Assembly: GCA_017860455.1 (NCBI GenBank)
Contig: JAGDMF010000013.1
Span: 556 to 64,555, forward strand
From: Bacteroidota bacterium
GTDB taxonomy: Bacteria > Bacteroidota > Bacteroidia > Bacteroidales > WCHB1-69
Direction of reading: 5' to 3'
Length of the DNA: 64,000 nucleotides
Shown: positions 2,947-52,940 of the stretch, in pieces
Layout: every line of letters begins with the position of its first letter
Position numbering within the stretch: the first letter of the stretch is position 1
Position numbers and translations under genes: made by a program
Notes under the pieces: generated by a model
Databases searched by the model: none
What the model saw: the letters and a program-made list of their open reading frames with translations, nothing else
Told to the model about the DNA's origin: nothing

Positions 2947-3392
2947 ATAAGGTAAGAAGTAAAAGGTAAGAGGTAAGAGGTAAGAGATAACAGGTAACAG
3001 GTATCAAGTAACAGGTAACAATAGAATGGGGAGTGGTATGAAGAAAAATTTGATTGAATTGTGTTGATTAATTGCTTGTTGAACAATTGCCCTGTACTTT
3101 AGTGCAGGGCAATTTTGGTAAGAGATAACAGATAACAGGTAGCAAGTAACAGGTAACAATAGAATGGGGAGTGGTAAGAAGAAAAACAATTGCCCTGTAC
3201 TTTAGTGCAGGGCAATTTTGGTAAGAGATAACAGGTAACAGGTAGCAAGTAACAGGTAACAATAGAATGGGGAGTGGAAAGAAGAAAAATTTGATTGAAT
3301 TGTGTTGATTAATTGCTTGTTGAACAATTGCCCTGTACTTTAGTGCAGGGCAATTTAGCTAAGAAGTAAGAGGTAACAGGTTACAGGTAACA
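2947..3392. repeat. Composite tandem repeat: GGTAACA/GGTAAGA heptamers plus three identical 30-bp REP-like palindromes
   Basis: AATTGCCCTGTAC-TTTA-GTGCAGGGCAATT at 3085-3114, 3188-3217 and 3326-3355, within near-identical duplicated units. Confidence 0.9.
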
Positions 3393-3393
3393 T

Positions 3394-4587
3394 TTAACAG
3401 ATGGGGGATTTTGGAAGGGTAAAGTAGAAGGAAGATCCTTCATCTAATGTACTTTCGACCCAGATTTTTCCTTTGTTGGTTTCAATAAAATCTTTACAAA
3501 GAATCAGGCCCATTCCTGTTCCTTTTTCATTGTTTGTTCCATTTGTTGAACAGCCATAGTCTAATTGAAAAATTTCATTTAGTCGTTTTTTTGAGATCCC
3601 TACACCATTATCTTGAACACAAAATAGAAAAAATTTATCCTGGTCATAAGCTGAAACTGTTATTTCACCAACACTTTTAGTGAATTTAATGGCATTGGAA
3701 ATCAGATTTCTAAAAACTGTAATGGTCATCGATTTATCGGCAAAAACTTTTAAATCTGAAAGTAGATGATTTTTAATTACAATTGATTTTTCTTTGGCTA
3801 CATTTTCATATAAGAGGAGGGTTTCTTCCAGAGCAGAATCAATTTCAATATATTCAGGATTGTAGAGTAATCTTCCTGTATGTAATTGCGCCCATTCCAT
3901 CAAATTTTGAAGCAAATCCATGGCTCTATTTGATGATTCTAAAATAATGTTCCCATAATATCCAATTTTTTCCATATCTTGATTCTCGATTTCTGTAAGA
4001 AGAAATTCTGAAAAGTTAATAATTGAATTAAATGGGGTTTTTAAATCATGAGCAATGATGGATAAAAATTTGGCTCTTTCATTGTTCAATTTGAGTAGTT
4101 CTTCATTTTTTAATTTGATTTCCAACTCTTCATCTTTACGCTTCGTAATATCCTGAAGCGTGCCAGTCCAGATGATGTCTCCGTTATCCATCGGACGAGG
4201 TATAGAATGAAAATGGATCCACATCAATTTTCCGTCAATGACTACGCGTCCTTCCCAGGAAAATGGAGTAATATCTCTGTTTGCTTCAACGTTTTTTTTG
4301 ATGAAACTTGCTTTATCCTCTTCGAAAATTAAATCAATGATGATTCCCGGAATTTGTTCAAAATCAGATCGTTTAAGATGAAGAATTTCATAGAAACGAT
4401 CATTGGCAAATTCAATTTTACTGGCAGAATCGGTAGAACTTGCCCATTTTTCATCGAGGGTAGATGATTCTTGAAAAACGCGCAAACGATAAATTCCTGC
4501 AGGTAAAGCATTCGCCAAATCACTGTATAGTGCTTCTTCTCTTTCTAATTTTGCAATACAAGTATTCAGTTTCTTCATAATCATCAA
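3394..4587 (-). CDS. PAS-domain sensor histidine kinase (orphan, cytoplasmic)
   Basis: H-box AHDLKTPF, N-box NLISNAIKF, G1 DNGVGI, G2 GTGMGL, and a PAC-like WTGTLQDITKRK segment. Confidence 0.9.
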   Translation of the reverse strand: MMIMKKLNTCIAKLEREEALYSDLANALPAGIYRLRVFQESSTLDEKWASSTDSASKIEFANDRFYEILHLKRSDFEQIPGIIIDLIFEEDKASFIKKNVEANRDITPFSWEGRVVIDGKLMWIHFHSIPRPMDNGDIIWTGTLQDITKRKDEELEIKLKNEELLKLNNERAKFLSIIAHDLKTPFNSIINFSEFLLTEIENQDMEKIGYYGNIILESSNRAMDLLQNLMEWAQLHTGRLLYNPEYIEIDSALEETLLLYENVAKEKSIVIKNHLLSDLKVFADKSMTITVFRNLISNAIKFTKSVGEITVSAYDQDKFFLFCVQDNGVGISKKRLNEIFQLDYGCSTNGTNNEKGTGMGLILCKDFIETNKGKIWVESTLDEGSSFYFTLPKSPIC

Positions 4588-23785: not shown

Positions 23786-23975
23786 AAAATAAAGAAAGGC
23801 GAAAGGCGAAAGGCAAAGGGCGAAGGGCGAATGATAAATGAATAATGAATAATGAATAATGAATAATGAATAATTGAGCACATGAGCATTTGAACACATG
23901 AGCACATTGAGTACTCGAGCAATCGAGCAATCGAGCAATCGAGCATTCGAGCAATCGAGCATTCGAGCATTCGAA
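23786..23975. repeat. Ordered octamer/heptamer mosaic directly after a stop codon
   Basis: Minus strand from the 23977 stop reads (GAWTGCTC)n, (ATGTGCTC)n, (ATTATTC)n, (TTCGCCY)n. Confidence 0.92.
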
Positions 23976-42535: not shown

Positions 42536-42988
42536 ATGCCATTATTAAACTTACATCAGGGTAAAGAACTGGAAATTTTTGCAGCAGAAACAGAAACGGA
42601 CTTAGAATTGCCTTTACTTCCATTTCAAATCAGTGCGGGGTTCCCCTCCCCTGCTTTAGATTTTGTTGATCTTTCTATTGACTTGAACAAACAACTGATT
42701 GAACATCCTTCAGCCACATTTTATGGAAGAGTTAAAGGGGAATCGATGAAAAATGCCGGAATTAATGATGGTGATTTGTTGGTGATTGACAAAAGTATTG
42801 AGCCTGTTGATGGTAAAATAGCGGTTTGTTATCTGGATGGTGAGTTTACGTTAAAACGGATCAAAATCAAAAAAAATGAACTTTGGTTAATACCTGAAAA
42901 CGAGGCTTATAAACCCATAAAAATTGAAGAAAACAACAATCTGACCATCTGGGGGATTGTCACCTATATCATCAAAAAGCCATTGTAA
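42536..42988 (+). CDS. umuD: DNA polymerase V autoproteolytic subunit (S24 peptidase)
   Basis: Cleavage site SAG/FPSPA, catalytic Ser in GESM and Lys in TLKR. Confidence 0.93.
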
Positions 42989-44247
42989 TGTTTGCTTTGA
43001 TCGACTGCAACAACTTTTATGCATCCTGTGAAAGGGTGTTTCGTCCCGATTTGAATGGGATTCCGGTTGTTGTTCTTTCCAACAATGATGGGTGTGTGAT
43101 CGCACGGAGTAATGAAGCCAAAGCAATTGGTGTTCCGATGGGCGCTCCGGCTTTTGAAAATGAAGAATTGTTTAGGAAAAACAATGTGCAGGTTTTTTCT
43201 GCTAATTTTGCATTGTATGGAGATATGAGTCATCGTGTGATGACCATTTTGGAAGAGTATAGTCCTGAAATGGAGATCTATAGTATTGATGAAGCATTCC
43301 TTAAACTTAAAAATTTTGACAGAATTGATCTTTATGAGCATGGTAAATCGATGCGAAATAAAGTTTATAAGTGGACCGGAATACCCGTAAGTGTGGGAAT
43401 TGCGCCCACTAAATCGCTTGCCAAGGTAGCCAACAGAATCGCTAAAAAATTTCCTGAAAAAACAGGCAATGTATATATCATTGATACTGAAGAAAAAAGG
43501 ATAAAAGCATTAAAATGGTTATCCGTTGAAGATGTATGGGGAATTGGGCGGCAACATTCAAAAAGATTGTACGCATTAGGAGTAAAAACAGCTTATGATT
43601 TCACCCAATTGGATCCCTACTGGGTTCAAAAACAGATGGCTATTGTCGGATTGAGGTTACAAAAAGACCTCAAAGGGATTCCCACTTTAGATATGGAAAC
43701 GGTTCAGCCTAAAAAAAACATTGCAACCACCCGGACTTTTGAAAAAAACTACACAGAATGGAACGATCTTTCGGAGCGGGTCACCACTTTTGCTGTTTCA
43801 TGTGCTGAAAAGTTAAGACAACAACACTCTTGTTGCAATACCGTGATGGTTTTTGTTCATACCAACTGGCACCGCAAAGATCTGGATCAGTATAGTCGTA
43901 ATATTGTTGTAAAATTACCATTTCCAACTAATTCCGGAATTGAACTCTCCAAATATGCCCTTTTGGGCTTACAAAAAATATTTAAAAAAGGGTACCAGTA
44001 CAAAAAAGCGGGTGTTATAGTGATGGATTTCACTCCTGACAATGAACAACAGTTGGGATTGTTTGAGAATAGAAATGATCGTCACATTCCCTTGATGGAA
44101 GCGATTGATAAAATCAACCACTCTTACGGACAACAAAAAGTGCGTTTAGCTTCACAGGATCAGAAGAAAGTCTGGAAAATGAAACAGGAAAAATTGTCCC
44201 CAAGATATACCACCAAATTATCAGATATCATCATAATCCGTTGTTAG
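42988..44247 (+). CDS. umuC: Y-family DNA polymerase V catalytic subunit
   Basis: [26 protein letters not shown]-terminal [19 protein letters not shown] overlap with umuD. Confidence 0.95.
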
Positions 44248-44248
44248 T

Positions 44249-44851
44249 ATGTGTTTTTTTATGCAAATTTCAAAAGATGCTACCGAATTGAAGCATCGAT
44301 TCAATGCCAAATTTGAACATGATTTGGATTTCAGACCTCAGAGTTACAATGGATTTCAATATCCTAAAGTACCAGTAATCACGCACCAAAACAAAGATTT
44401 AATTCAGCTTTTTGAGTGGGGATTGATTCCATCCTGGGCAAAAAATGATGAGATTCAGAAAAACACACTGAATGCCAGAATCGAAACCATTACCGAAAAA
44501 CCCTCCTTTAAATATGTGATCTCAAATAAATGTTTAATCATTGCAGACTCTTTTTTTGAATGGCAATGGTTAGATGAAAAAGGGAAAAAGAAACAAAAAT
44601 ATGAGATCATGTTGCCGGAACATCAATTATTTACTTTTGCCGGATTGTACAATCAATGGGCCGATCCTTCCACTGGAGAAGTTCGCAATACTTTCACCAT
44701 TTTAACCACTGAAGCGGACGAGTTGATGAGTAAAATTCATAATTCCAAGAAACGGATGCCGGTAATTTTAGATCAAAATTCAGAAAATTTATGGCTCAAT
44801 GGAGAACTTAAAACCTTTGTCCATGTTCCCCTTATTGCCAATCCCATCTGA
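44249..44851 (+). CDS. SOS response-associated peptidase (SRAP/YedK/HMCES family)
   Basis: Catalytic Cys2 (MC), WGLIP.W, NARIET, FFEW, IH...RMPVIL. Confidence 0.93.
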   Translation: MCFFMQISKDATELKHRFNAKFEHDLDFRPQSYNGFQYPKVPVITHQNKDLIQLFEWGLIPSWAKNDEIQKNTLNARIETITEKPSFKYVISNKCLIIADSFFEWQWLDEKGKKKQKYEIMLPEHQLFTFAGLYNQWADPSTGEVRNTFTILTTEADELMSKIHNSKKRMPVILDQNSENLWLNGELKTFVHVPLIANPI

Positions 44852-45043: not shown

Positions 45044-47155
45044 ATGGAAATCATGGATCATAACATTCAAAAGTTAGGCAAAAATCCTGAAGATATTCAG
45101 TTTTTTGATTTATTTGATCAGGATGACATTCAAAAATTGCAAGATCTTTTTTCTGCAGCAAACAAAGTATCCTCTGTCATTATGGATCTGGATGGGAATA
45201 TGTTGACCAAACCAAGTAACTTTACTCCATTATGTAAGATGATCATGGAAAAATCGACGAATGGTTCACCTGCTTGTTTTGCTTATGACCAATGGAATAA
45301 AGATCATAAAGATTTAAACAATACAACTGTTTCTCCTTGCACTTTAAGTGGTTATTGGTTTGAGACTGCATTTATTAGTGTTGGTGAAAATCCAATAGCG
45401 ATTTGGCAGATGGGACAGGTTCGCAGTATGTCTTACGACATCAATCAAATTGAAGAGTATGCCAATAAATCAGGGATTGAAAAAACAACCTTTTTGCAAG
45501 CATTTCTAAAAGCACCGGTTGTTACGATTTATGAGTTTGAGAATGTTGCCAAATTGTTTTTTACTATTGCAAATGAACTTTCCGAAAAGGCGTTTCGAAA
45601 TTTACAGTTAAGCCGACAAATTGATGAAATTGAAAAGATCAACAGTGAACTAACTGAAAGTGAACAACGTTTTAAAGCGCTACATGATGCTTCATTCGGT
45701 GGTATTGCGATCCATAAAAATGGGATTATAATTGAGTGTAATTATGGCCTTTCAGATATTTCCGGGTATACCAGAGAAGAGTTGTTGGGATTAGACATTC
45801 TCACATTAATCGATCCTGATTACCTTGATTACGTAACCGATCAGATGAAAAATAAATCTGAGAAATCGTATGAAGTGATGGGACTTCGTAAAAACGGAGA
45901 TTCTTATCCTGTTAGAGTTCAGGGGAAAAATGTTTTTTACAAAGGGGAACCGGTTAGAACTGTAGAGTTTAGAGATATCACGGAACAAAAGTTAGCAGAA
46001 GCTGAACTGATCCGCAAAAAAGAGTTGGCTGAAGAGAGCAACAGAGCAAAATCTGCTTTTATTGCTAATATGAGTCATGACATCAGAACTCCGATGAATG
46101 GAATTTTGGGATTTGCAGATCTTTTAAAAGATGCACATATAACCCCAAAAGAGCAACTCGAATATATTCAGATTATTGAAAATAGTGGTGCTTTAATGTT
46201 GGAGATCATCAATGAGATTATCCATATTTCCAAAATTGAAGCCGGGCTCATCAAAACCAATATATCTTCATTCAACATCAAAGAGTTACTTCAAAACAAT
46301 TTCAATAAATTTGAGCAAACCATAAATCAAAAGGGAATTATTCTTAAATACTACGGCATCAATGCATTGAAGAACTTTATTGTGAAGTCGGATCAGGACA
46401 AAGTGGATGCGATTTTATACTATGTATTAAAATTTGGAATTCAAAACACCATTCAAGGGGGGGTAGAGTTGCAAGTAGTTGAAAAAGATCAAAAATTTGA
46501 ATTTACGATTAAGGACACCGGGCTTGGGATCTCCCCTGAACGGGTTTCCACTATTTTCGACCGGTTCAGTGCTGATCAGTACCTGGAAAAATCACACGAA
46601 AGCAGGGGGTTAGACTTAATTATAGCCAAATCGTACATTGAAATGTTGGGAGGGACGATACATGTAAGCAGTCAGCTCGGATTTGGAACCACTATTGCAT
46701 TTTCATTACCATTAGATTTTGAAAAATACAAAGATTCTCCAGAAACCAATGCCGGAGGACGCACTTTAAATATAGCCAACTTACAGGATTTGAAAGTCTT
46801 GATAGCTGAAGATGATGAAACATCGGCTCTATTATTAAGCACTTATTTAAAACCATACACAAAAGCGATCCTACATTCGCCAAATGGTGAGAAAGCAGTT
46901 GAGATGGCACGTATGAATCCTGATTTGGACTTAATCATGATGGACATTCAGATGCCATTGTTGAATGGATTTAACGCCACCAAACAGATTCGTGAATTCA
47001 ACACCAGTGTGATTGTGATTGCGCAAACAGCCTTTGGATTATCGGGAGATCGGGACAAAGCTTTAGAAGCAGGGTGTTCCGATTACATCTCCAAGCCGAT
47101 CAAGAAAGAGGAGCTCAACGGCATGCTCATCAAGTTCTTCCCGGAAAAGCTGTAA
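45044..47155 (+). CDS. Hybrid sensor: PocR-like domain, PAS, HisKA/HATPase and receiver
   Basis: IQKLQDLFS.A..V.S.I.D..G..LT.PSNF..LC (PocR-like), a PAS domain, H-box SHDIRTPM, receiver AEDD / MDIQMP / SKP. Confidence 0.9.
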   Translation: MEIMDHNIQKLGKNPEDIQFFDLFDQDDIQKLQDLFSAANKVSSVIMDLDGNMLTKPSNFTPLCKMIMEKSTNGSPACFAYDQWNKDHKDLNNTTVSPCTLSGYWFETAFISVGENPIAIWQMGQVRSMSYDINQIEEYANKSGIEKTTFLQAFLKAPVVTIYEFENVAKLFFTIANELSEKAFRNLQLSRQIDEIEKINSELTESEQRFKALHDASFGGIAIHKNGIIIECNYGLSDISGYTREELLGLDILTLIDPDYLDYVTDQMKNKSEKSYEVMGLRKNGDSYPVRVQGKNVFYKGEPVRTVEFRDITEQKLAEAELIRKKELAEESNRAKSAFIANMSHDIRTPMNGILGFADLLKDAHITPKEQLEYIQIIENSGALMLEIINEIIHISKIEAGLIKTNISSFNIKELLQNNFNKFEQTINQKGIILKYYGINALKNFIVKSDQDKVDAILYYVLKFGIQNTIQGGVELQVVEKDQKFEFTIKDTGLGISPERVSTIFDRFSADQYLEKSHESRGLDLIIAKSYIEMLGGTIHVSSQLGFGTTIAFSLPLDFEKYKDSPETNAGGRTLNIANLQDLKVLIAEDDETSALLLSTYLKPYTKAILHSPNGEKAVEMARMNPDLDLIMMDIQMPLLNGFNATKQIREFNTSVIVIAQTAFGLSGDRDKALEAGCSDYISKPIKKEELNGMLIKFFPEKL

Positions 47156-47330
47156 ACAAGGACAGCAGACAGCAGACGGCAGACCTTTCAGAATGCTCGA
47201 ATGCTCGAATGCTCGAATGCTCGATTGCTCATTATTCATTATTCATTATTCATTCGTCTGTAGTCCGTGGTCCGTTGTCTGTAGTCTTTTCATTCGTCTG
47301 TAGTCCGCTGTCCGCCGTCTGCAGTCTTTT
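47156..47330. repeat. Heptamer/octamer mosaic after the kinase stop codon
   Basis: Plus strand reads (CRGCAGA)n, (GAATGCTC)n, (ATTATTC)n, (TGTAGTC-like)n. Confidence 0.9.
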
Positions 47331-47335
47331 TATTA

Positions 47336-47512
47336 GGGCGTGCCGGCTTCCCCACCCACGAGCCTTCCCACGCCGTCGGGCTTTTCCGGGGGTCCGCTTC
47401 GCTCCCGTGCTTCACCGCACTACGCTTAAGAAAATCCAAAACTTCACATAAAAATCATCGCGGCGCTCGTTCCGGTTCGCACCGGCTTCGCCGCCCCTCC
47501 AATCCCTCACGC
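47336..47512 (-). ncRNA. GC-rich structured element, Flavo-1/Bacteroidales-1-like candidate
   Basis: Minus strand GCGTGAGGGATTGGAGGGG...CCCCCGGAAAAGCCCGAC...GGCACGCCC. Closing helix GCGTG/CACGC, stem GCGGCG/CGCCGC, hairpin CCGGT-GCGA-ACCGG. Family name and strand are from recall and unverified. Confidence 0.5.
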
Positions 47513-47542
47513 GACAAAAAACTTCGTTTTTTCTTTAGGAAT

Positions 47543-47722
47543 AGAGACTGGAGACTGGAGATAAATGAATAATGAAAAATGAATAATGAAAAATGAAAAA
47601 TGAATAATGAAAAATGAATAATGAATAATGAAAAATGAATAATGAATAATGAATAATTGAGCACATGAGCAATCGAGCACATGAGCATTTTGAAAGTCTG
47701 CCGTCCGCAGTCTGCAGACTTT
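47543..47722. repeat. Heptamer/octamer mosaic, inverted relative to 47156-47330
   Basis: Plus strand reads GGAGACT repeats, (GAAWAAT)n, (GAGCACAT)n and GTCTGC-type heptamers. Confidence 0.9.
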
Positions 47723-47726
47723 TCTC

Positions 47727-47852
47727 AGCTCCGTAGGAGCGACACCTTTGTAGCAGATGAATTGCCGGTGAAATGAACCCGCCACAGAGTGGCGTTAAAT
47801 TGGTAGCGTATAAATTCCAACCAAACGATCCCGCTCCAGAGGAGCGTTATAT
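47727..47852. repeat. Three regularly spaced REP-like mini-hairpins
   Basis: GCTCC-GTA-GGAGC (47728), CGCCAC-AGA-GTGGCG (47780), CGCTCC-AGA-GGAGCG (47832), about 52-bp period. Confidence 0.7.
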
Positions 47853-47951
47853 TTGTTTTTAAAAAATATGATTATTGTGAACGCATCCATGATCATCTAT
47901 ATTAAAAGAGTTGCCTTATTTGGGTGCTTTTTCAATTATTATGTTGTCATT

Positions 47952-49193
47952 TCAAAAAGGAAAATGATTTTTATCAATTTTTTTTAACTTATATTTTATT
48001 GGTTTCATTTCAATACAATTACCATAAGCATCAACAGCATAAATATCTATTAATTCAATTATATCATTTTCTTTCATTGTTTTAATTTTTTCCTTAAGAT
48101 CATATTTTAACATAGGACTATATAATTGATATTTGAAAATTTCATTTTCTGTTGTAATCTTCACAACACAAGATAATAGGTTATATTCATTATATATGAT
48201 TCCTGAGTTATCTTGAATAAGTAAAGCGTAGCGATTGAATCCTTTTTGGATATATAATACATTTGTTTTCAAATCAATAAGTAAAGGTGCTGATCTGACT
48301 ATTTTAAATTCAATGATTTGAATAGTATCGGAAAAATTTTTAAAATGATGAATTATGTACAATGTTGATTTTTTATAGGAATCGGGTTTGATAATGATAA
48401 TATTATTCTTTCTTATGATAGTTAACTCTTGAGATTTAAAACTTAAGCTATCGGAAAATATTCCGTATTCTTCATTAATTTGAAAAAAATTATCATTGTT
48501 CTTAATTAAGAAAGGATCTATTTTTGTGGTAATTATATCAGGCATAAACTTTATTACAGAAATTGATAATGTGAGATTGTATATATTAGTTAGATCACAT
48601 AATATTGATTTGAAAATGTCAGATTTTATATAAAAATTATTGATAAAAGTATCAATAAGAATGTCGTCAATTAAATCTATCCTATTTTTTTTTGCAATTT
48701 TAAATTCATAAAAAGTATGATCAAAATGTTTTTTTATATTTGAATAATTTTTTTTACATTCAATAATCGTATTGATAAAATCATTTAATGAAGCAAATCT
48801 AATTTTGTCACAAGATGTGTAAGATATTGTATCATTATTAATTGGGAACTCATTTTCTTTCAATAAGAACAATTGATTATCGTATTCAAATGGGTATCCA
48901 AATGAGTTAGACTTTGTCAAAAAAAGGATTATTTTTTCACCAAGTACACATTTTGAAATTTTATGACCACAATCATAGGGACTAATTTCAACTTCAATTA
49001 TTGAATCATTAGATTGTTGAAAAAAGGAACTATCTATTCTGAAAATATATTTTTGATCAGTAAGATGAATAATCTCTCCTAAAAAACAATAATCAGAGAT
49101 TTTAATTATTTCATGTAGTTTCATTTTATATGTGCCAGCATAAGAAAAAGAAACTTCAATGATTAACAAAAGAATTAATGTATATTTTTTCAT
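47952..49193 (-). CDS. Very AT-rich secreted hypothetical protein, C-terminus possibly GldM-like
   Basis: 413 aa with a signal peptide. The tail KIKTMKENDIIELIDIYAVDAYG...MKPIKYKL resembles the last GldM domain. Confidence 0.6.
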   Translation of the reverse strand: MKKYTLILLLIIEVSFSYAGTYKMKLHEIIKISDYCFLGEIIHLTDQKYIFRIDSSFFQQSNDSIIEVEISPYDCGHKISKCVLGEKIILFLTKSNSFGYPFEYDNQLFLLKENEFPINNDTISYTSCDKIRFASLNDFINTIIECKKNYSNIKKHFDHTFYEFKIAKKNRIDLIDDILIDTFINNFYIKSDIFKSILCDLTNIYNLTLSISVIKFMPDIITTKIDPFLIKNNDNFFQINEEYGIFSDSLSFKSQELTIIRKNNIIIIKPDSYKKSTLYIIHHFKNFSDTIQIIEFKIVRSAPLLIDLKTNVLYIQKGFNRYALLIQDNSGIIYNEYNLLSCVVKITTENEIFKYQLYSPMLKYDLKEKIKTMKENDIIELIDIYAVDAYGNCIEMKPIKYKLKKIDKNHFPF

Positions 49194-49199
49194 AATCTA

Positions 49200-50060
49200 T
49201 TAATATAAATCAGGTAGTTTAGGTAATTTGATCTCATTTGGGGTACCAGTAAGTTTTTTAACAACATCTTCAGCTTCTTTCAATGTATTAATCATTAAAC
49301 CCCAATCACTATCAAACCAAATCATTGATTCTAATAGTCCACCGCGATCAGAACCATTTCCTCTCTGATCTTTCCATCTTTTAGAAGGTTTTCCATTTTC
49401 ATAAATATATTCACAATCTAATGTTTGGTTTTTCTTTCTTCCATTTACATAATCACCATGATGCGTCAATTCATGAATTACAATATTAACAATAAAGAGA
49501 AGTGCAGTTTGTTTTTTAAATTTTGTAGCCTTTTTATCATTTAAAGCTTTTATTTTGTCAATATAACTAGGTGGAATCATAATACAACCCTGATCATATT
49601 CAGGTGCCTGACCTCCGTTAAACCACAAATATGGTCCTATCCCATCTGTTGTTGCTTCAACTATTTGCTCCCTAGTCATACCTCCAAACAACTGTAAAGC
49701 TTCCATAATCAATGGACTTCCCAATACATAATTTTGAAAATCGTTTACCATAAAATTATAAAAAGTTTTATTGATACCTTCTATGCGTGGATCGACAACT
49801 ATCCTACCATCTGGATCAATTAATTTTATTGGATTATTCGCACAATAGTTATATGGTGACATGCTGGGGTACTCATCACTCATCGGGTCAACAGAGAGCC
49901 AAATGCTTAAACCACTGTCGTAGTATCTTGCACCGAAGTAACCGTATCCGGTTTCGGTATCTTTTTCTTTACCGGAGAAAGTGTATGGGGTGTTCCAGGA
50001 GGAGTTGCGTTGGTCAACCCAATCTTCAACAAATAGTAAGGACAAATCTTTCATACTCAT
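49200..50060 (-). CDS. Orphan Rhs core fragment with C-terminal HExxH metallopeptidase toxin domain
   Basis: PYTFSGKEKD.ETG..YFGARYYD...WLSVDP...SPYNYCANNPIKLIDPDG, then about 200 aa containing HELTHHGD. No YD-repeat body. Confidence 0.88.
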   Translation of the reverse strand: MSMKDLSLLFVEDWVDQRNSSWNTPYTFSGKEKDTETGYGYFGARYYDSGLSIWLSVDPMSDEYPSMSPYNYCANNPIKLIDPDGRIVVDPRIEGINKTFYNFMVNDFQNYVLGSPLIMEALQLFGGMTREQIVEATTDGIGPYLWFNGGQAPEYDQGCIMIPPSYIDKIKALNDKKATKFKKQTALLFIVNIVIHELTHHGDYVNGRKKNQTLDCEYIYENGKPSKRWKDQRGNGSDRGGLLESMIWFDSDWGLMINTLKEAEDVVKKLTGTPNEIKLPKLPDLY

Positions 50061-50086
50061 AAATTTTCAAAAAGTACAGAGGTTTT

Positions 50087-50746
50087 TTAAAAAAGATTGT
50101 ATTCTAAGAAATTATCTTCACAATTCAATTTTATAAAATCAATGCATTCTGAACTATATCCTTTATTTTGCATTATTAATAATTCATGTGAAAAAGTATC
50201 ATGATCCAAAATTAGTGATTGATAATAATAGTATTCAAAAAAAAGAAAATATTGTTCATTTTTAAAAATTATGTTTAAATCATTTTTACATAATGAATCA
50301 AAAAGTTCTTGTTTTTCAATAAAATAGGGTTTTATTTCAGAAATTATTGAATTCAAAACCTCATAATACATTATTGAATCACCCAAATAAAGATATTTCA
50401 TAGCTTGAAATCTTTTAACGAGTATATCATTATAATATGGAAAAGAAGGGGAAAAAGGGTTGTTTAATGTTTTAATATAATCTAAACCACCATCATAATC
50501 ATGTTTTAATGATAAAATCAATAATTTCCTCCCTATAAAATTCATATTGGTAGTAGTAACTATTCCTAATTCAGTATAAAATAGTGCAGAATCTAGAAGG
50601 GTTGAATCTCCAAATAATTGATATTCATCTAAAAAATTCGAACTTATCAAACTGAAATTTTGAGATGTACTATCTTTTTGTGAAAATGAAACACCAACAC
50701 TAATCGATATCAAGATAATAAGGAGTATTATGGACTTTAATTTCAT
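50087..50746 (-). CDS. AT-rich secreted hypothetical protein, candidate immunity protein
   Basis: 219 aa, signal peptide, helical, adjacent to the Rhs tip. TAnnTTTG box at 50823-50830 (-). Confidence 0.6.
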   Translation of the reverse strand: MKLKSIILLIILISISVGVSFSQKDSTSQNFSLISSNFLDEYQLFGDSTLLDSALFYTELGIVTTTNMNFIGRKLLILSLKHDYDGGLDYIKTLNNPFSPSFPYYNDILVKRFQAMKYLYLGDSIMYYEVLNSIISEIKPYFIEKQELFDSLCKNDLNIIFKNEQYFLFFEYYYYQSLILDHDTFSHELLIMQNKGYSSECIDFIKLNCEDNFLEYNLF

Positions 50747-50952
50747 ATTTAAGACTTTATATTTAAATAAGTTATTAAATGGGTCATTAACAAAAACATA
50801 TTTGGATTAGCTTACATGCGACAAATATACAACTTTTTTAATTATTATAATTTTTTTAAAATTATTTTACCACTAAGGACACCATGAGATTTTTCTCAGA
50901 GGACTCAGTGGAAAAACACTTAGTGAACTCTGTGTGATAATAATTTTCATCT

Positions 50953-51061
50953 CTTATTCCGAGAAAGTGTTGAAATAGATTTTTGTATTGATCTTAATAT
51001 AAATCAAATACAAAAACATTCATTTTTAAATCGAACCCTTTCCACACTATCCCGGAATAAG
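50953..51061. repeat. MITE-like 109-bp element with imperfect terminal inverted repeats
   Basis: CTTATTCCGAGAAAGTGTTGAAA ... TTTCCACACTATCCCGGAATAAG (3 mismatches in 23), with an inner TTTTTGTATT/AATACAAAAA stem. Confidence 0.65.
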
Positions 51062-51068
51062 AAAAGAA

Positions 51069-51284
51069 ATGGCATCGGCGCTTCGATACGAAACCTTAGT
51101 TATCCCCAATTTGTTCTTTTAGTCTGTATTTCCGGTTTCTACACTTCGCAAGCTCAGTGACCGCTCAGCGACCTTAACTTTGAGCAACATACGCACTACT
51201 CTAAGGTCGTTGAGTAGAAGCGCCCTCACGATACATAGAAGAAACAAAGAAATAAATAGCTTCGTATCGAAACGCCGACGCCAT
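51069..51284. repeat. REPIN/MITE-like 216-bp nested hairpin element
   Basis: 24-bp arms ATGGCATCGGCGCTTCGATACGAA / TTCGTATCGAAACGCCGACGCCAT (2 mismatches). Inner stem CTCAGCGACCTTA / TAAGGTCGTTGAG. Contains the 44-mer also found at 569-612. Confidence 0.75.
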
Positions 51285-51294
51285 GAAAAAAAAT

Positions 51295-51468
51295 GCGTGA
51301 GGACGAAGCCGGAAAGCGCGCAAAGTTGGAAAGCGATGGGATGCGGGAGTTAAAGAGCGAACTTGTGAGCTACTTTAACGACCAGGCAGCCCAGACCCTT
51401 TGGCTTGCGACGGGGTTATTCTTTATTTTATGAATAATTTGGTTGAGCGTAGCCAAAGGGGCACGCCC
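51295..51468 (+). ncRNA. Second GC-rich structured element with the same termini as 47336-47512
   Basis: GCGTGAGG...GCCCAGAC...GGCACGCCC with stems GCGTG/CACGC, GTTAAAG/CTTTAAC and CCTTTGGCT/AGCCAAAGG. Confidence 0.5.
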
Positions 51469-51601
51469 AAATTAATGTGCTAATTTGTAAATGTGCTAAT
51501 GTGCTAATTAAAAATGAAAAATTAAAAATGAAAAATGAAAAATTGAGCACATGAGCACATGAGCACACGAGCATTCGAGCATTCGAGCAATCGAGCATTC
51601 G
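51469..51601. repeat. Octamer/heptamer mosaic after the ABC permease stop codon
   Basis: Minus strand from the stop reads (GAWTGCTC)n, (ATGTGCTC)n, (ATTTTTM)n, (ATTAGCAC)n. Confidence 0.9.
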
Positions 51602-51602
51602 G

Positions 51603-52940
51603 TTAGTATCTCAACCACTTAAAGAGCTCTTTGTAAGTGATTTTTTTGCCGTACATGAGGATGCCTACACGGTATATCTTGGCGGCAAACCATACACAGA
51701 AAATGAAAAACAAGACACAAATCGCCATAGATGATAACAATTGTACTAAAGGTACACCCGAAGGCAATCGGATGAGCATCGCTACCGGTGAAGTTAATGG
51801 GATCATAGACATCCAGAACGCTAATGGTCCGTTGGGATCTTCGGTTATGGGAACTAACAACATGATCGTCAATATTAACGGAATAGTAACCGGCAATGTG
51901 AACTGCTGTGAATCGGTTTCATTGTCCACAGCTGATCCAACCGCTGCAAAAAGGGCTGCATAGATCAAATAGCCAAAAATGAAGTAGAAAAGGAAACTTA
52001 ACAACAATACCGTAAAAGATACATTAAAATACATATCAATTAACGTAAATATTGATGCAGTTGGCATTTGATCTGCGCCAATAGCAGTGATCTGGTTTTG
52101 TGCTGCAATCGTTGCTCCCTGTCCGCCCATTTGCTGCATAAGCGCCTGGGATTGGAATAGATCGGGAACTGCAAATTGAGCGCCGTAAATAAAAACAAAC
52201 GTTAAGCCTACCCATATCAGAAACTGAGTCAGTCCAACCATGGCAATCCCAATAATTTTTCCCATCATCAGTTCCATCGGTTTTACGGATGAGATCAAAA
52301 CTTCCACAATTCTGTTTGTTTTCTCTTCTAAAACACCTCTCAACACTTGAGATGCAAACATAAAGATAAAGAAATAGATGGCTATACCACTGAACATTCC
52401 AACAATTCTCGATATTTCAGCCTGAGTTTGTTTCTCCTGACCGGCTTCATCAATTTTAATATTGGCCACTGAAGAGCGGGTTAAACTTTTTAGTTTCTCA
52501 TATTTTTCAGGATCCACTTTAAAAGTATCCACTAACAGTTTGTCGAACAATAATTTGTCCATTTGACTTTCAATATTGGAATTAAAAGTCATGGATGGTT
52601 CTTCGCTGTAATACAAATTGGATTGGATCATCTGAGTTCCTTTTAAAATATGTAAAACAGCATCATATCCATTGCTAAGTGCTTCTTTTTTAATAACATC
52701 AATATCACCTGAGCGGTAGGCAAAAGTGGTTTTTTCATTATCACTGAAACGATTGATAAAAAATTCATTATCATCAACCACCATCACTTTCATTGTTTTC
52801 TGGGTTTCATTTGCAACAATGACAGGTACGACAATCAAAGCAGCCAAAAGAAGCGGCGCAATGATGGTCATGATTATAAACGATTTTTTCTTAACTCTGG
52901 TAAGATATTCGCGGGCTATAATAAATCTAATCTTATTCAT
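51603..52940 (-). CDS. ABC-2 type transporter permease (NatB-like)
   Basis: REYLTRVKKKSF, EEKTNRIVEVLISSVKP..LM.GKI, multiple TM helices. Confidence 0.92.
   Translation of the reverse strand: MNKIRFIIAREYLTRVKKKSFIIMTIIAPLLLAALIVVPVIVANETQKTMKVMVVDDNEFFINRFSDNEKTTFAYRSGDIDVIKKEALSNGYDAVLHILKGTQMIQSNLYYSEEPSMTFNSNIESQMDKLLFDKLLVDTFKVDPEKYEKLKSLTRSSVANIKIDEAGQEKQTQAEISRIVGMFSGIAIYFFIFMFASQVLRGVLEEKTNRIVEVLISSVKPMELMMGKIIGIAMVGLTQFLIWVGLTFVFIYGAQFAVPDLFQSQALMQQMGGQGATIAAQNQITAIGADQMPTASIFTLIDMYFNVSFTVLLLSFLFYFIFGYLIYAALFAAVGSAVDNETDSQQFTLPVTIPLILTIMLLVPITEDPNGPLAFWMSMIPLTSPVAMLIRLPSGVPLVQLLSSMAICVLFFIFCVWFAAKIYRVGILMYGKKITYKELFKWLRY

Follow-up and report, generated by a model that had tools for sequence, protein, structure and literature searches.

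A transposase-less Rhs-tip cassette with putative IS1595-family ends in a strain-variable slot of a Bacteroidales genome

We analyzed a 64,000-nt stretch (hereafter, the window) of the genome of a Bacteroidota bacterium of the Bacteroidales lineage WCHB1-69 (assembly GCA_017860455.1, contig JAGDMF010000013.1), and in particular the interval at positions 47156–51601, around which a gene for a hybrid sensor kinase and a gene for an ABC permease converge. The interval contains three minus-strand open reading frames (ORFs), encoding proteins of 413, 286 and 219 amino acids (aa), and these are framed by two structured elements, e1 and e2, that face the cargo. We read the interval as a passenger cassette that lacks a transposase gene, is framed by the ends of an insertion sequence (IS) in the manner of a mobile insertion cassette (MIC), and occupies a strain-variable accessory slot. 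We put the probability of this reading at roughly 0.6.

All of the evidence is computational. The window's own genome, G000, comprises 2.01 Mb in 46 contigs and is 65% complete; the window lies on contig C9. It was compared with G004, a complete congener of which 2.82 Mb (81%) was covered, plus the stretch L011, which holds the orthologous slot. ORFs of both genomes were crude calls of at least 90 aa. Conserved and variable DNA were distinguished using this one genome pair and megablast, with which 77.6% of G000 was covered at approximately 88% identity, the cover not being restricted to collinear blocks. Tandem arrays were called using Tandem Repeats Finder (TRF), and the e1/e2 family was built by iterated nhmmer profiles seeded on e1 and on e2.

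Genes, arrays and elements of the interval

The left border of the slot is the conserved host gene for the sensor kinase (45044–47155, plus strand), which has PocR, PAS, HisKA, HATPase_c and receiver domains in Pfam and whose orthologue in G004 is 95% identical at the amino acid level. The right border, also a conserved host gene, encodes an ABC-2 permease (51603–52940, minus strand; ABC2_membrane_3 in Pfam) and is 89.7% identical to G004 at the nucleotide level. Between e1 and e2, the GC content is 0.284, versus approximately 0.34 for the contigs. The original prediction had described mirrored repeat mosaics, two inverted elements and three co-oriented, low-GC genes including an Rhs tip, and all of these are present in the sequence. 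It had also reported no recombinase in the interval; indeed, none of the three cargo ORFs carries an integrase or transposase domain.

The 286-aa ORF (49200–50060, minus strand) encodes an Rhs C-terminal tip. Residues 19–85, including the PxxxxDPxGL region, match the Rhs-associated core end (TIGR03696, Rhs_assc_core; E = 3.5e-19, 69.1 bits against a cut-off of 32.5), and the remainder is a rare C-terminal domain with a HELTHH motif. The match of the tip to Tox-MPTase3 (E = 1.3e-3, 19.4 bits) falls below the 25-bit cut-off. A search at E ≤ 1e-3 recovered 19 representatives of the C-terminal domain among 1.84 billion; where a row covers most of the domain, the domain forms the C-terminal end of the protein. 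The domain was not found in proteins of 502–2000 aa, which is weak evidence as full-length Rhs proteins here exceed 2000 aa. The tip does not lie downstream of a full-length rhs gene, its neighbors being the kinase and the permease, and YD repeats (PF05593) have no match anywhere in G000 at its 65% completeness. The tip is therefore an orphan within the assembled part of the genome.

The 413-aa ORF (47952–49193, minus strand) begins 7 nt past the stop codon of the tip, and its product is a putative periplasmic immunity partner of the tip. The 219-aa ORF (50087–50746, minus strand) would encode one additional secreted protein. Neither ORF has a match in Pfam or NCBIfam, and both proteins have hydrophobic N-termini by eye. 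For the 413-aa protein, the ESM Atlas gave no usable feature match, only structure rows of low template-modeling score and a low-confidence model. Upstream of the three ORFs, the segment at 50812–50975 (minus strand) aligns to both tip loci that we describe in G004; this sharing suggests that the segment may hold the promoter region of the cassette.

On the kinase side, the outer mosaic leader of e1 (47161–47334, plus strand) consists, according to TRF, of (GACAGCA)x3.4 at 47161–47184, (GAATGCTC)x5.0 at 47191–47230, (ATTATTC)x3.7 at 47229–47254 and, at 47249–47334, a 40-nt unit of GTCTGTAGTCC-type heptamers repeated 2.2 times, which the original prediction had not listed; the leader ends in a T-run. 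Element e1 itself, defined by pattern and profile, is a GC-rich structured element of 177 nt (47336–47512, plus strand). It is followed by a degenerate remnant, recognized by alignment, of a terminator-like hairpin that follows many e1 copies (47513–47535, plus strand), and then by an inner mosaic (47544–47687, plus strand) of (GAGACTG), (AATGAAT)x13.4 and (TGAGCACA)x3.8 that is the mirror image of the outer leader, so that e1 is itself bracketed by arrays. On the permease side, e2 is a structured element of 174 nt, likewise defined by pattern and profile (51295–51468, minus strand). Its outer leader (51473–51601, minus strand) mirrors the kinase-side arrays and reads, from the permease inward, NNNTGCTC octamers (51544–51601), ATTTTTC heptamers ((AATGAAA)x5.4, 51506–51543) and ATTAGCAC octamers ((TAATGTGC)x4.5, 51473–51508).

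The mosaics had been taken as a feature of the island, a notion that the genome-wide counts do not bear out. TRF reported 564 rows of period 7 and 335 of period 8 in G000, and merging yielded 376 array loci of 7- or 8-nt units in G000 and 536 in 2.8 Mb of G004. Of the intergenic regions of G000, 57 of the 118 convergent ones contained mosaics, as did 126 of 586 tandem and 42 of 173 divergent ones; the corresponding counts in G004 were 93 of 182, 182 of 865 and 68 of 246. Thus, mosaics occupy 48–51% of convergent and 21–28% of other intergenic regions, and the same kinds of array recur within the window at 526–800, 2950–3400 and 23794–23974. The mosaics are a genome-wide feature that is not specific to the island.

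The framing elements and a transposase-bearing unit

The sequence GGGCGTGCC occurs exactly twice in the 64 kb, at 47336 on the plus strand and 51468 on the minus strand, versus 0.01 occurrences expected. Similarly, the pattern GGGCRTKCC-N(145–175)-CCTMAYGC has two matches in the window (47336–47512, plus strand, and 51295–51468, minus strand) versus 0.00 expected, and both face inward. The original prediction had treated e1 and e2 as a single type. They do have in common the first 9 nt, the end motif and similarity at the level of profiles; they are not copies of each other, however, as blastn produced no alignment between them. The nhmmer profiles recovered 171 element loci (71 from G000, 100 from the 2.82 Mb of G004), and 157 of the 171 lie outside ORF calls. 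The e1 and e2 profiles cross-hit at several of the loci, and the two elements are therefore subfamilies 1 and 2 of one superfamily. Copies are 75–95% alike over approximately 100–200 nt.

The arrays and the elements are closely associated. At 135 of the 171 loci, a 7- or 8-nt array lies no more than 120 bp away, and arrays abut the tip of the element (≤45 nt) at 89 of the 130 loci with a recognizable tip. The order is constant: wherever NNNTGCTC octamers and ATTWTTC heptamers both occur within 120 nt, the octamers are outermost (14 of 14 loci).

The predicted fold of the elements is maintained across copies. For 25 e1 copies, RNAalifold predicted 32 pairs, eight of them with compensatory double changes. 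In this fold, 99.0% of cells are paired versus 94.0 ± 0.4% in shuffles, with none of 500 shuffles reaching the observed value, and versus 33–48% when the partners are slid; the covariation score was 0.164 versus 0.068 in the control. These controls overstate the case, the copies being related. The closing stem covaries across the two termini (GCGTG/CACGC, GCATT/AATGC and GCGTT/AACGC), and the central hairpin of e2 stays paired via three or four pair types per position.

The elements recur as the ends of a unit that carries its own gene. Six units in G004 consist of an e2-type end, an ORF of 341 aa and an inverted end, with an element spacing of 1.3–1.7 kb. When the units were aligned with their flanks, similarity began at GGGCATTCC and stopped at GGAATGCCC, with none beyond. 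In three of the six, the two ends are identical at 26–27 of the first 30 nt; in the other three, one end is of a shorter, GGGCATTCCGGC-type form like e1, and the ends are identical at 14–16 of 30. The first 30 nt of e2 of the window match the unit end at 24 of 30 positions, and e1 of the window has the GGGCRTKCCGGC start that three of the six autonomous units also carry. Judged from these alignments, e1 and e2 are the inward-facing ends, approximately 175 nt each, of an IS1595-family IS.

The family assignment depends on the 341-aa ORF, which we predict to encode a divergent, DDE-type transposase of the IS1595 family. The protein matches the IS1/IS1595 zinc-binding domain NF050000 above its cut-off (E = 1.6e-10, 41.4 bits; cut-off 28). 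Pfam reported no match to PF12762 (DDE_Tnp_IS1595) on the protein itself; its relatives, at 30–35% identity and E ~1e-37, carry PF12762, and one of them is named an IS1595 family transposase. In tblastn searches of the fetched part of G004, the protein had eight copies at 94–100% identity and three at ~58%, plus fragments. In G000, fragments of the gene occur at the ends of contigs C11, C45, C12, C26 and C7, and at four of these five an e2 element lies a few hundred bases off, facing the fragment; there was no match on C9, the contig of the window. The enzyme gene is therefore present in the window's genome, collapsed at assembly breaks. A transposase acting on e1 and e2 would thus be supplied in trans, by copies of the 341-aa gene elsewhere in the same genome.

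We searched for e2 and the transposase in 31 relatives. Matches to e2 (20–29) occur together with the transposase in G000, G001, G004 and G006, and neither was found in the congeners G002 (98% complete) and G005 (95% complete). A single e2 match is present in G003 (57% complete), and nine weak ones, without the transposase, in G007. In another genus, G025 has two transposase matches (~32% identity, E ~1e-33) and zero e2 matches. The remaining genera among the 31 had no match to either.

Additional observations concern the autonomous units. They seem to stand at orthologous sites in G004 and G000 (e.g., G4a 1011578–1013615 versus the ends of C7 and C35). The sites thus seem shared between genomes that are ~88% identical, yet the G004 transposase copies are 94–100% identical to one another, which points to concerted evolution or to recurrent insertion into the same slots. 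A second IS1595-like IS is present in G004 as five near-identical copies with classic short inverted repeats, its transposase being 34% identical to the first.

Cargo turnover and association with variable DNA

In G004, the same kinase and permease (88–90% nucleotide identity) flank 6.1 kb of different cargo: an Amidase_2-like gene, a leucine-rich repeat-like gene, an Rhs tip of 421 aa (TIGR03696, E = 2.1e-17) and a group II intron. As in the window, mosaics abut both host stop codons. The only slot sequence common to the two genomes is the ~160 nt upstream of the cassette, which is split by the intron in G004; positions 50814–50871 and 50875–50975 of the window align to L011 10072–10130 and 12088–12196. 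The kinase is not adjacent to the permease in G001 and G006, making these genomes uninformative on the slot. The intron, encoding a 463-aa reverse transcriptase with a maturase domain, lies at L011 10243–12060 and also at G4a 731834–733225, 1990686–1992077 and 2019741–2021132; the copies scored have identical Pfam scores, and the intron is present inside several IS-end-framed cargo regions.

The cargo of the window is found at a second G004 locus. There, at G4a 2483751–2485897, the 413-aa gene remains paired with the tip (82% nucleotide identity over 2147 bp), and an e2 and an e1 element once more frame the pair. The upstream segment accompanies the pair (50812–50917 of the window align to G4a 2486008–2486114), and the 219-aa gene is missing from this copy. 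On sequence grounds, then, cargo has turned over at the slot, and the same cargo occupies a second framed slot. The hotspot of plasticity that the original prediction had proposed is thereby supported.

Short metagenome contigs from three runs, covering window positions 49999–50859, likewise lack the 219-aa gene, the 5′ end of the tip being joined directly to the upstream segment as it is at the second G004 locus. These joins are weak, with sides of 22–35 nt at a likeness of ≥85%, and the contigs mostly pile on repeats; they were not counted as evidence. Among sequencing runs, none of RNA was listed with the locus, and the best DNA run contained 0.26 of the sampled words.

Genome-wide, the elements are polar markers of variable DNA. 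This mapping, which the original prediction had proposed as a check, excluded elements ≤2150 bp from a contig end, and the 5′ side of an element was taken as the outer side and the 3′ side as the inner, cargo-facing side. In G000 (n = 52), mean alignment cover reached 0.83 for the 5′ side, as against 0.33 for the 3′ side. At 23 loci, the 5′ side was conserved and the 3′ side variable, versus 0 loci with the reverse (p = 2.4e-7); 12 further loci were conserved and six variable on both sides. In G004 (n = 99), the mean cover was 0.60 and 0.26, respectively, and the corresponding counts were 32 and 3. The signal appeared only once element orientation was used, and intergenic regions containing only mosaics did not differ from the rest in their adjacency to variable DNA.

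Neighboring elements ≤15 kb apart form 33 inward, 12 outward and 15 direct pairs, seven of the direct pairs being split matches ≤133 bp apart. Twenty-eight inward pairs are 150–8000 bp apart and enclose the transposase, nothing, or passenger genes. Of the 98 variable gaps between collinear blocks, 30 hold an element in one or both genomes. Orthologous elements were mapped by their borders, a first mapping having left 54 of the 71 G000 elements unmapped. For 25 of the 53 G000 elements with an aligned 5′ flank, an element of the same orientation, often of the other subfamily, stands at the orthologous G004 border. Cargo could be evaluated at 19 of these 25 shared borders, and was unaligned at 11, aligned at four and intermediate at four. 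A frame at G4a 1955661–1960137, the left end of which is cut to its last 47 nt, contains an Eco57I-like methylase/restriction gene (963 aa); the orthologous G000 site (C23 3735–3927) has mosaic arrays only.

The elements are enriched around Rhs-tip cassettes. A blastp search with the two tips returned 28 ORFs that keep the conserved core end (G000, 12; G004, 16), among them a full-length gene of 3072 aa in G004 and two ORFs of 619 and 898 aa. An element lies ≤3 kb from 21 of the 28, versus 20.9% of 3793 ORFs (binomial p = 1.3e-9, a value that overstates the case, as neighboring tips share elements). Within 5 kb, 30 of 31 element–tip relations face inward.

The remaining repeats of the interval each belong to a multi-copy family. 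Two hairpins resembling repetitive extragenic palindromic (REP) sequences, of the form GCTCC-loop-GGAGC and CACCTTTGTAG, lie at 47712–47762 and 47826–47860 (no strand assigned); the former has nine matches in G000 and four in G004, and the latter 19 and 78. A 121-nt element resembling a miniature inverted-repeat transposable element (MITE) lies at 50948–51068 (no strand); its arms (TCTCTTATTCCGAGAAAGTG... and complement) are the inverted repeats of the second IS1595-like IS, and it has 12 matches per genome. Adjoining e2, a palindromic composite (51058–51290, no strand) has inverted arms of ~30 nt, at 51058–51092 and 51262–51290, around another repeat (51128–51178) that contains GCTCAGCGACC twice and recurs at 570–610 of the window. 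In G004, several e2 copies are likewise followed, past their inner end, by the arm sequence. Finally, upstream of the kinase, at 42988–44851, a gene for a Y-family polymerase (IMS, IMS_C, DUF4113) is followed by one for an SOS-response-associated peptidase (SRAP), both of which are kept in G004 and G001.

Candidate mechanisms and comparison with known systems

In the reading we prefer, the cassette comprises an orphan Rhs toxin tip, a putative periplasmic immunity gene and one extra gene, framed by two IS ends, and the mirror symmetry of the layout arises because two inverted IS ends would each bring their outer leader of 7/8-nt arrays. Frames of this kind would move or exchange cargo, whether by the transposase acting in trans or by homologous recombination among the dispersed ends and arrays. 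The trans-acting enzyme of the original prediction is plausible; it had been sought among RAYT/IS200-type enzymes, a part that is not supported, the elements being instead the ends of an IS1595-family unit.

Several findings weigh against this reading. At the level of the slot, the orthologous interval of G004 has one e1-type element only, on the permease side and facing inward, and the cargo at the second G004 locus is reversed relative to e1 and e2, which does not correspond to a simple block move. At the level of the ends, e1 and e2 match at 18 of 30 positions with only the first 9 nt shared, and e1 ends were never found on both sides of a transposase-bearing unit. The match of the 341-aa protein to transpos_IS1595 (NF033547; E = 2.1e-14, 53.9 bits) is below the 75-bit cut-off, and its Pfam match is to Zn_ribbon_IS1595 only (E = 0.0031), also below cut-off. 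Target-site duplications were not visible by eye at the six transposase-bearing units, whose flanks are often inverted array sequences; nor were any seen at the window unit, with outer flanks CTTTTTATTA and AAATTAATGT, or at a 185-bp MITE-like pair. A clean pair of empty and filled sites was not found either: at both near-empty sites that were inspected, other mosaic DNA is present instead. Without orientation, the association with variable DNA is weak: variable DNA adjoins 22 of 44 element-bearing intergenic regions versus 158 of the 612 regions that lack both (elements and mosaics; p = 0.0013), and 20 of 42 versus 62 of 187 when regions of at least 150 bp are considered (p = 0.11). Moreover, 68 of the 98 variable gaps have no element. 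To these are added the 65% completeness of G000, the 81% of G004, the crude ORF calls and the single genome pair.

An ordinary hotspot is the strongest competing explanation, possible although clearly less probable than the IS-framed cassette. Here, cargo would be exchanged by homologous recombination in the flanking genes, or between dispersed ends and arrays serving as portable homology, with the transposase uninvolved and the ends being debris or a source of homology. Because duplications and clean empty sites are missing and ends are swapped or single, this explanation is kept as the main rival; these features fit homologous exchange at least as well as cut-and-paste transposition. Also in its favor, variable DNA has its borders, in either genome, within the mosaics that directly adjoin the stop codons of the host genes, orthologous borders often carry an element of the other subfamily, the same cargo is inverted in its frame at the second locus, and the element copies are 75–95% alike over approximately 100–200 nt. 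Neither the strict polarity (23:0 and 32:3) nor the surplus of inward pairs at 0.2–7 kb, however, is predicted by a mere build-up of debris. Exchange via core genes needs no elements, yet three-quarters of the tip cassettes have one nearby, and recombination between inverted repeats produces inversions rather than replacement.

It is also conceivable, if doubtful, that the elements act mainly as RNA, as insulator or terminator modules or small RNAs, and that their position at island edges is a by-product of being IS ends. The long-range covarying pairs, the excess of paired cells and the eight compensatory pairs speak for such a role, as does the GC-rich composition of the elements in a genome of 34% GC. 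A strict terminator-like hairpin with a T-run follows 18 of 34 e1 copies, but only three of 41 e2 copies, and the e1 of the window retains just the degenerate remnant. Wobble pairs gave no clear strand for folding, nor did they discriminate RNA from DNA, the GU excess of e2 amounting to three invariant columns; the antisense strand had the lower folding energy in all 79 of 79 copies. In Rfam, nothing in the window reached the gathering score, and the only matches, at E up to 5 in two border regions, are at chance level. A role as RNA is in any case compatible with the IS-framed cassette rather than opposed to it.

The original prediction had suggested repeat-guided recombination or an enzyme such as a RAYT/IS200-type HUH nuclease, which would act in trans on GGGCGTGCC...CCTCACGC elements as REP-like substrates. 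The enzyme is highly improbable. Y1_Tnp genes are indeed present, three in G000 and five in G004, all above cut-off; two of the three in G000 lie ~0.3–0.6 kb from an element, the elements are folded, and REP-like hairpins occur inside the interval. Nevertheless, the elements near the two G000 genes face the gene as they would any other cargo, the Y1 genes are flanked by short hairpin families of their own rather than by e-elements, and none of the five G004 genes adjoins an element (the nearest is ~6–7 kb away for the two checked). The elements are also 175–230 nt long, not palindromes of 20–40 nt, and they end units encoding a different, DDE-type enzyme. On contig C34 (24980–25080), two copies of the GCTCC-loop-GGAGC/CACCTTTGTAG hairpin lie just downstream of a Y1_Tnp (RAYT-like) gene, and the Y1 gene of contig C43 is flanked by a different hairpin family. 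These data suggest that G000 contains REP/RAYT-type systems unrelated to the island borders. Equally remote is an integron-like system in which the elements are folded sites of a tyrosine recombinase: compensatory changes keep the closing stem and internal hairpins, and cargo turns over in cassette-like fashion at fixed borders, but the elements are inverted around the cargo rather than direct, they end a transposase-bearing unit, and the interval itself is free of recombinase genes, tyrosine recombinases not having been searched for across the genome.

If frames of IS ends do move or exchange cargo, this would explain how tips and immunity genes come to be scattered over the genome instead of queuing behind one rhs gene, and it would provide a transposon-based counterpart to integron-like cassette arrays in Bacteroidota. 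A broader and more tentative proposal is that of a genus-wide, dedicated cassette-exchange system, in which folded IS1595-derived ends and their leaders mark fixed slots, and the transposase and/or end-to-end recombination redistribute toxin/immunity, restriction and other accessory cassettes among slots and strains. Such a system, if real, would perform an integron-like function on a DDE transposon and be a route by which orphan Rhs tips spread as a reservoir of toxins. In either case, an oddly symmetrical locus becomes a testable system with a candidate enzyme and defined ends. IS ends of ~200 nt with compensated hairpins and an ordered array leader are unusual for a DDE element and raise the matter of what the fold and the arrays do. 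The repeats also break assemblies, and they mark accessory-gene sites in related metagenome-assembled genomes.

The IS1595 family is characterized by an 8-bp target-site duplication, and its ISfinder classification includes subgroups with passenger genes. The G004 units resemble this family in the N-terminal zinc-binding domain, the profile similarity, the relatives with PF12762, the inverted ends and the multiple copies. They differ in the divergence of the protein, with no Pfam DDE match and an NCBIfam score below cut-off, in conserved ends of ~200 nt with covarying hairpins, and in that the 8-bp duplication of the family was not seen.

The original prediction knew of no named element with such a symmetrical layout, but inverted IS ends around cargo without a transposase are the layout of mobile insertion cassettes and passenger-carrying ISs. 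In the parts of PMC3913671 considered here, a mobile insertion cassette is defined by two IS-like inverted repeats around non-transposase cargo, as in MIC231 of Bacillus cereus and the qnrD 'mic'. The interval is similar in that inverted IS-like repeats bracket the cargo, no transposase is nearby and autonomous copies exist elsewhere. Unlike those cassettes, it has no target-site duplication that we could find, and its mobilization is a prediction; its ends, from different subfamilies, are ~175–230 nt, folded and preceded by 7/8-nt leaders; and its cargo is a polymorphic-toxin cassette.

With REP/RAYT systems and mosaics resembling bacterial interspersed mosaic elements, this genome shares short hairpins beside single Y1_Tnp genes and intergenic regions built of several small repeat families. 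The border elements, in contrast, are not REPs and have no link to Y1 genes. Heptanucleotide tandem arrays are likewise familiar, the short tandemly repeated repetitive sequences of cyanobacteria being of this kind, and long simple sequence repeats are a further point of comparison. Arrays of heptamers, including TAACTGA, occur in Beggiatoaceae, Cyanobacteria and some Bacteroidetes, according to the portion of PMC4679880 consulted, and the present genome is similarly rich in intergenic 7-nt arrays of several kinds, TAACTGA-type units included. Unlike the known arrays, those of 7 and 8 nt here form an ordered composite that has the octamers outermost and abuts IS ends.

In the literature on IS1595 passengers, mobile insertion cassettes, orphan immunity and heptanucleotide repeats, we found no Rhs tips framed by IS ends; supplements were outside this scope, and the result is no proof of absence. 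The cargo was also compared with the orphan immunity arrays of Bacteroidales acquired interbacterial defense (AID) clusters, as far as these are covered by the part of bioRxiv 10.1101/471110 that was used. It resembles the orphan rhs toxin/immunity modules of Salmonella, as presented in the portion of PMC3967940 available to us, in which a truncated Rhs with the core end is followed by a variable toxin domain and a small downstream gene. Unlike those modules, the tip ORFs of the present genomes (at least 12 in G000 and 16 in G004) are dispersed, standing alone or a few together and for the most part within frames of IS ends.

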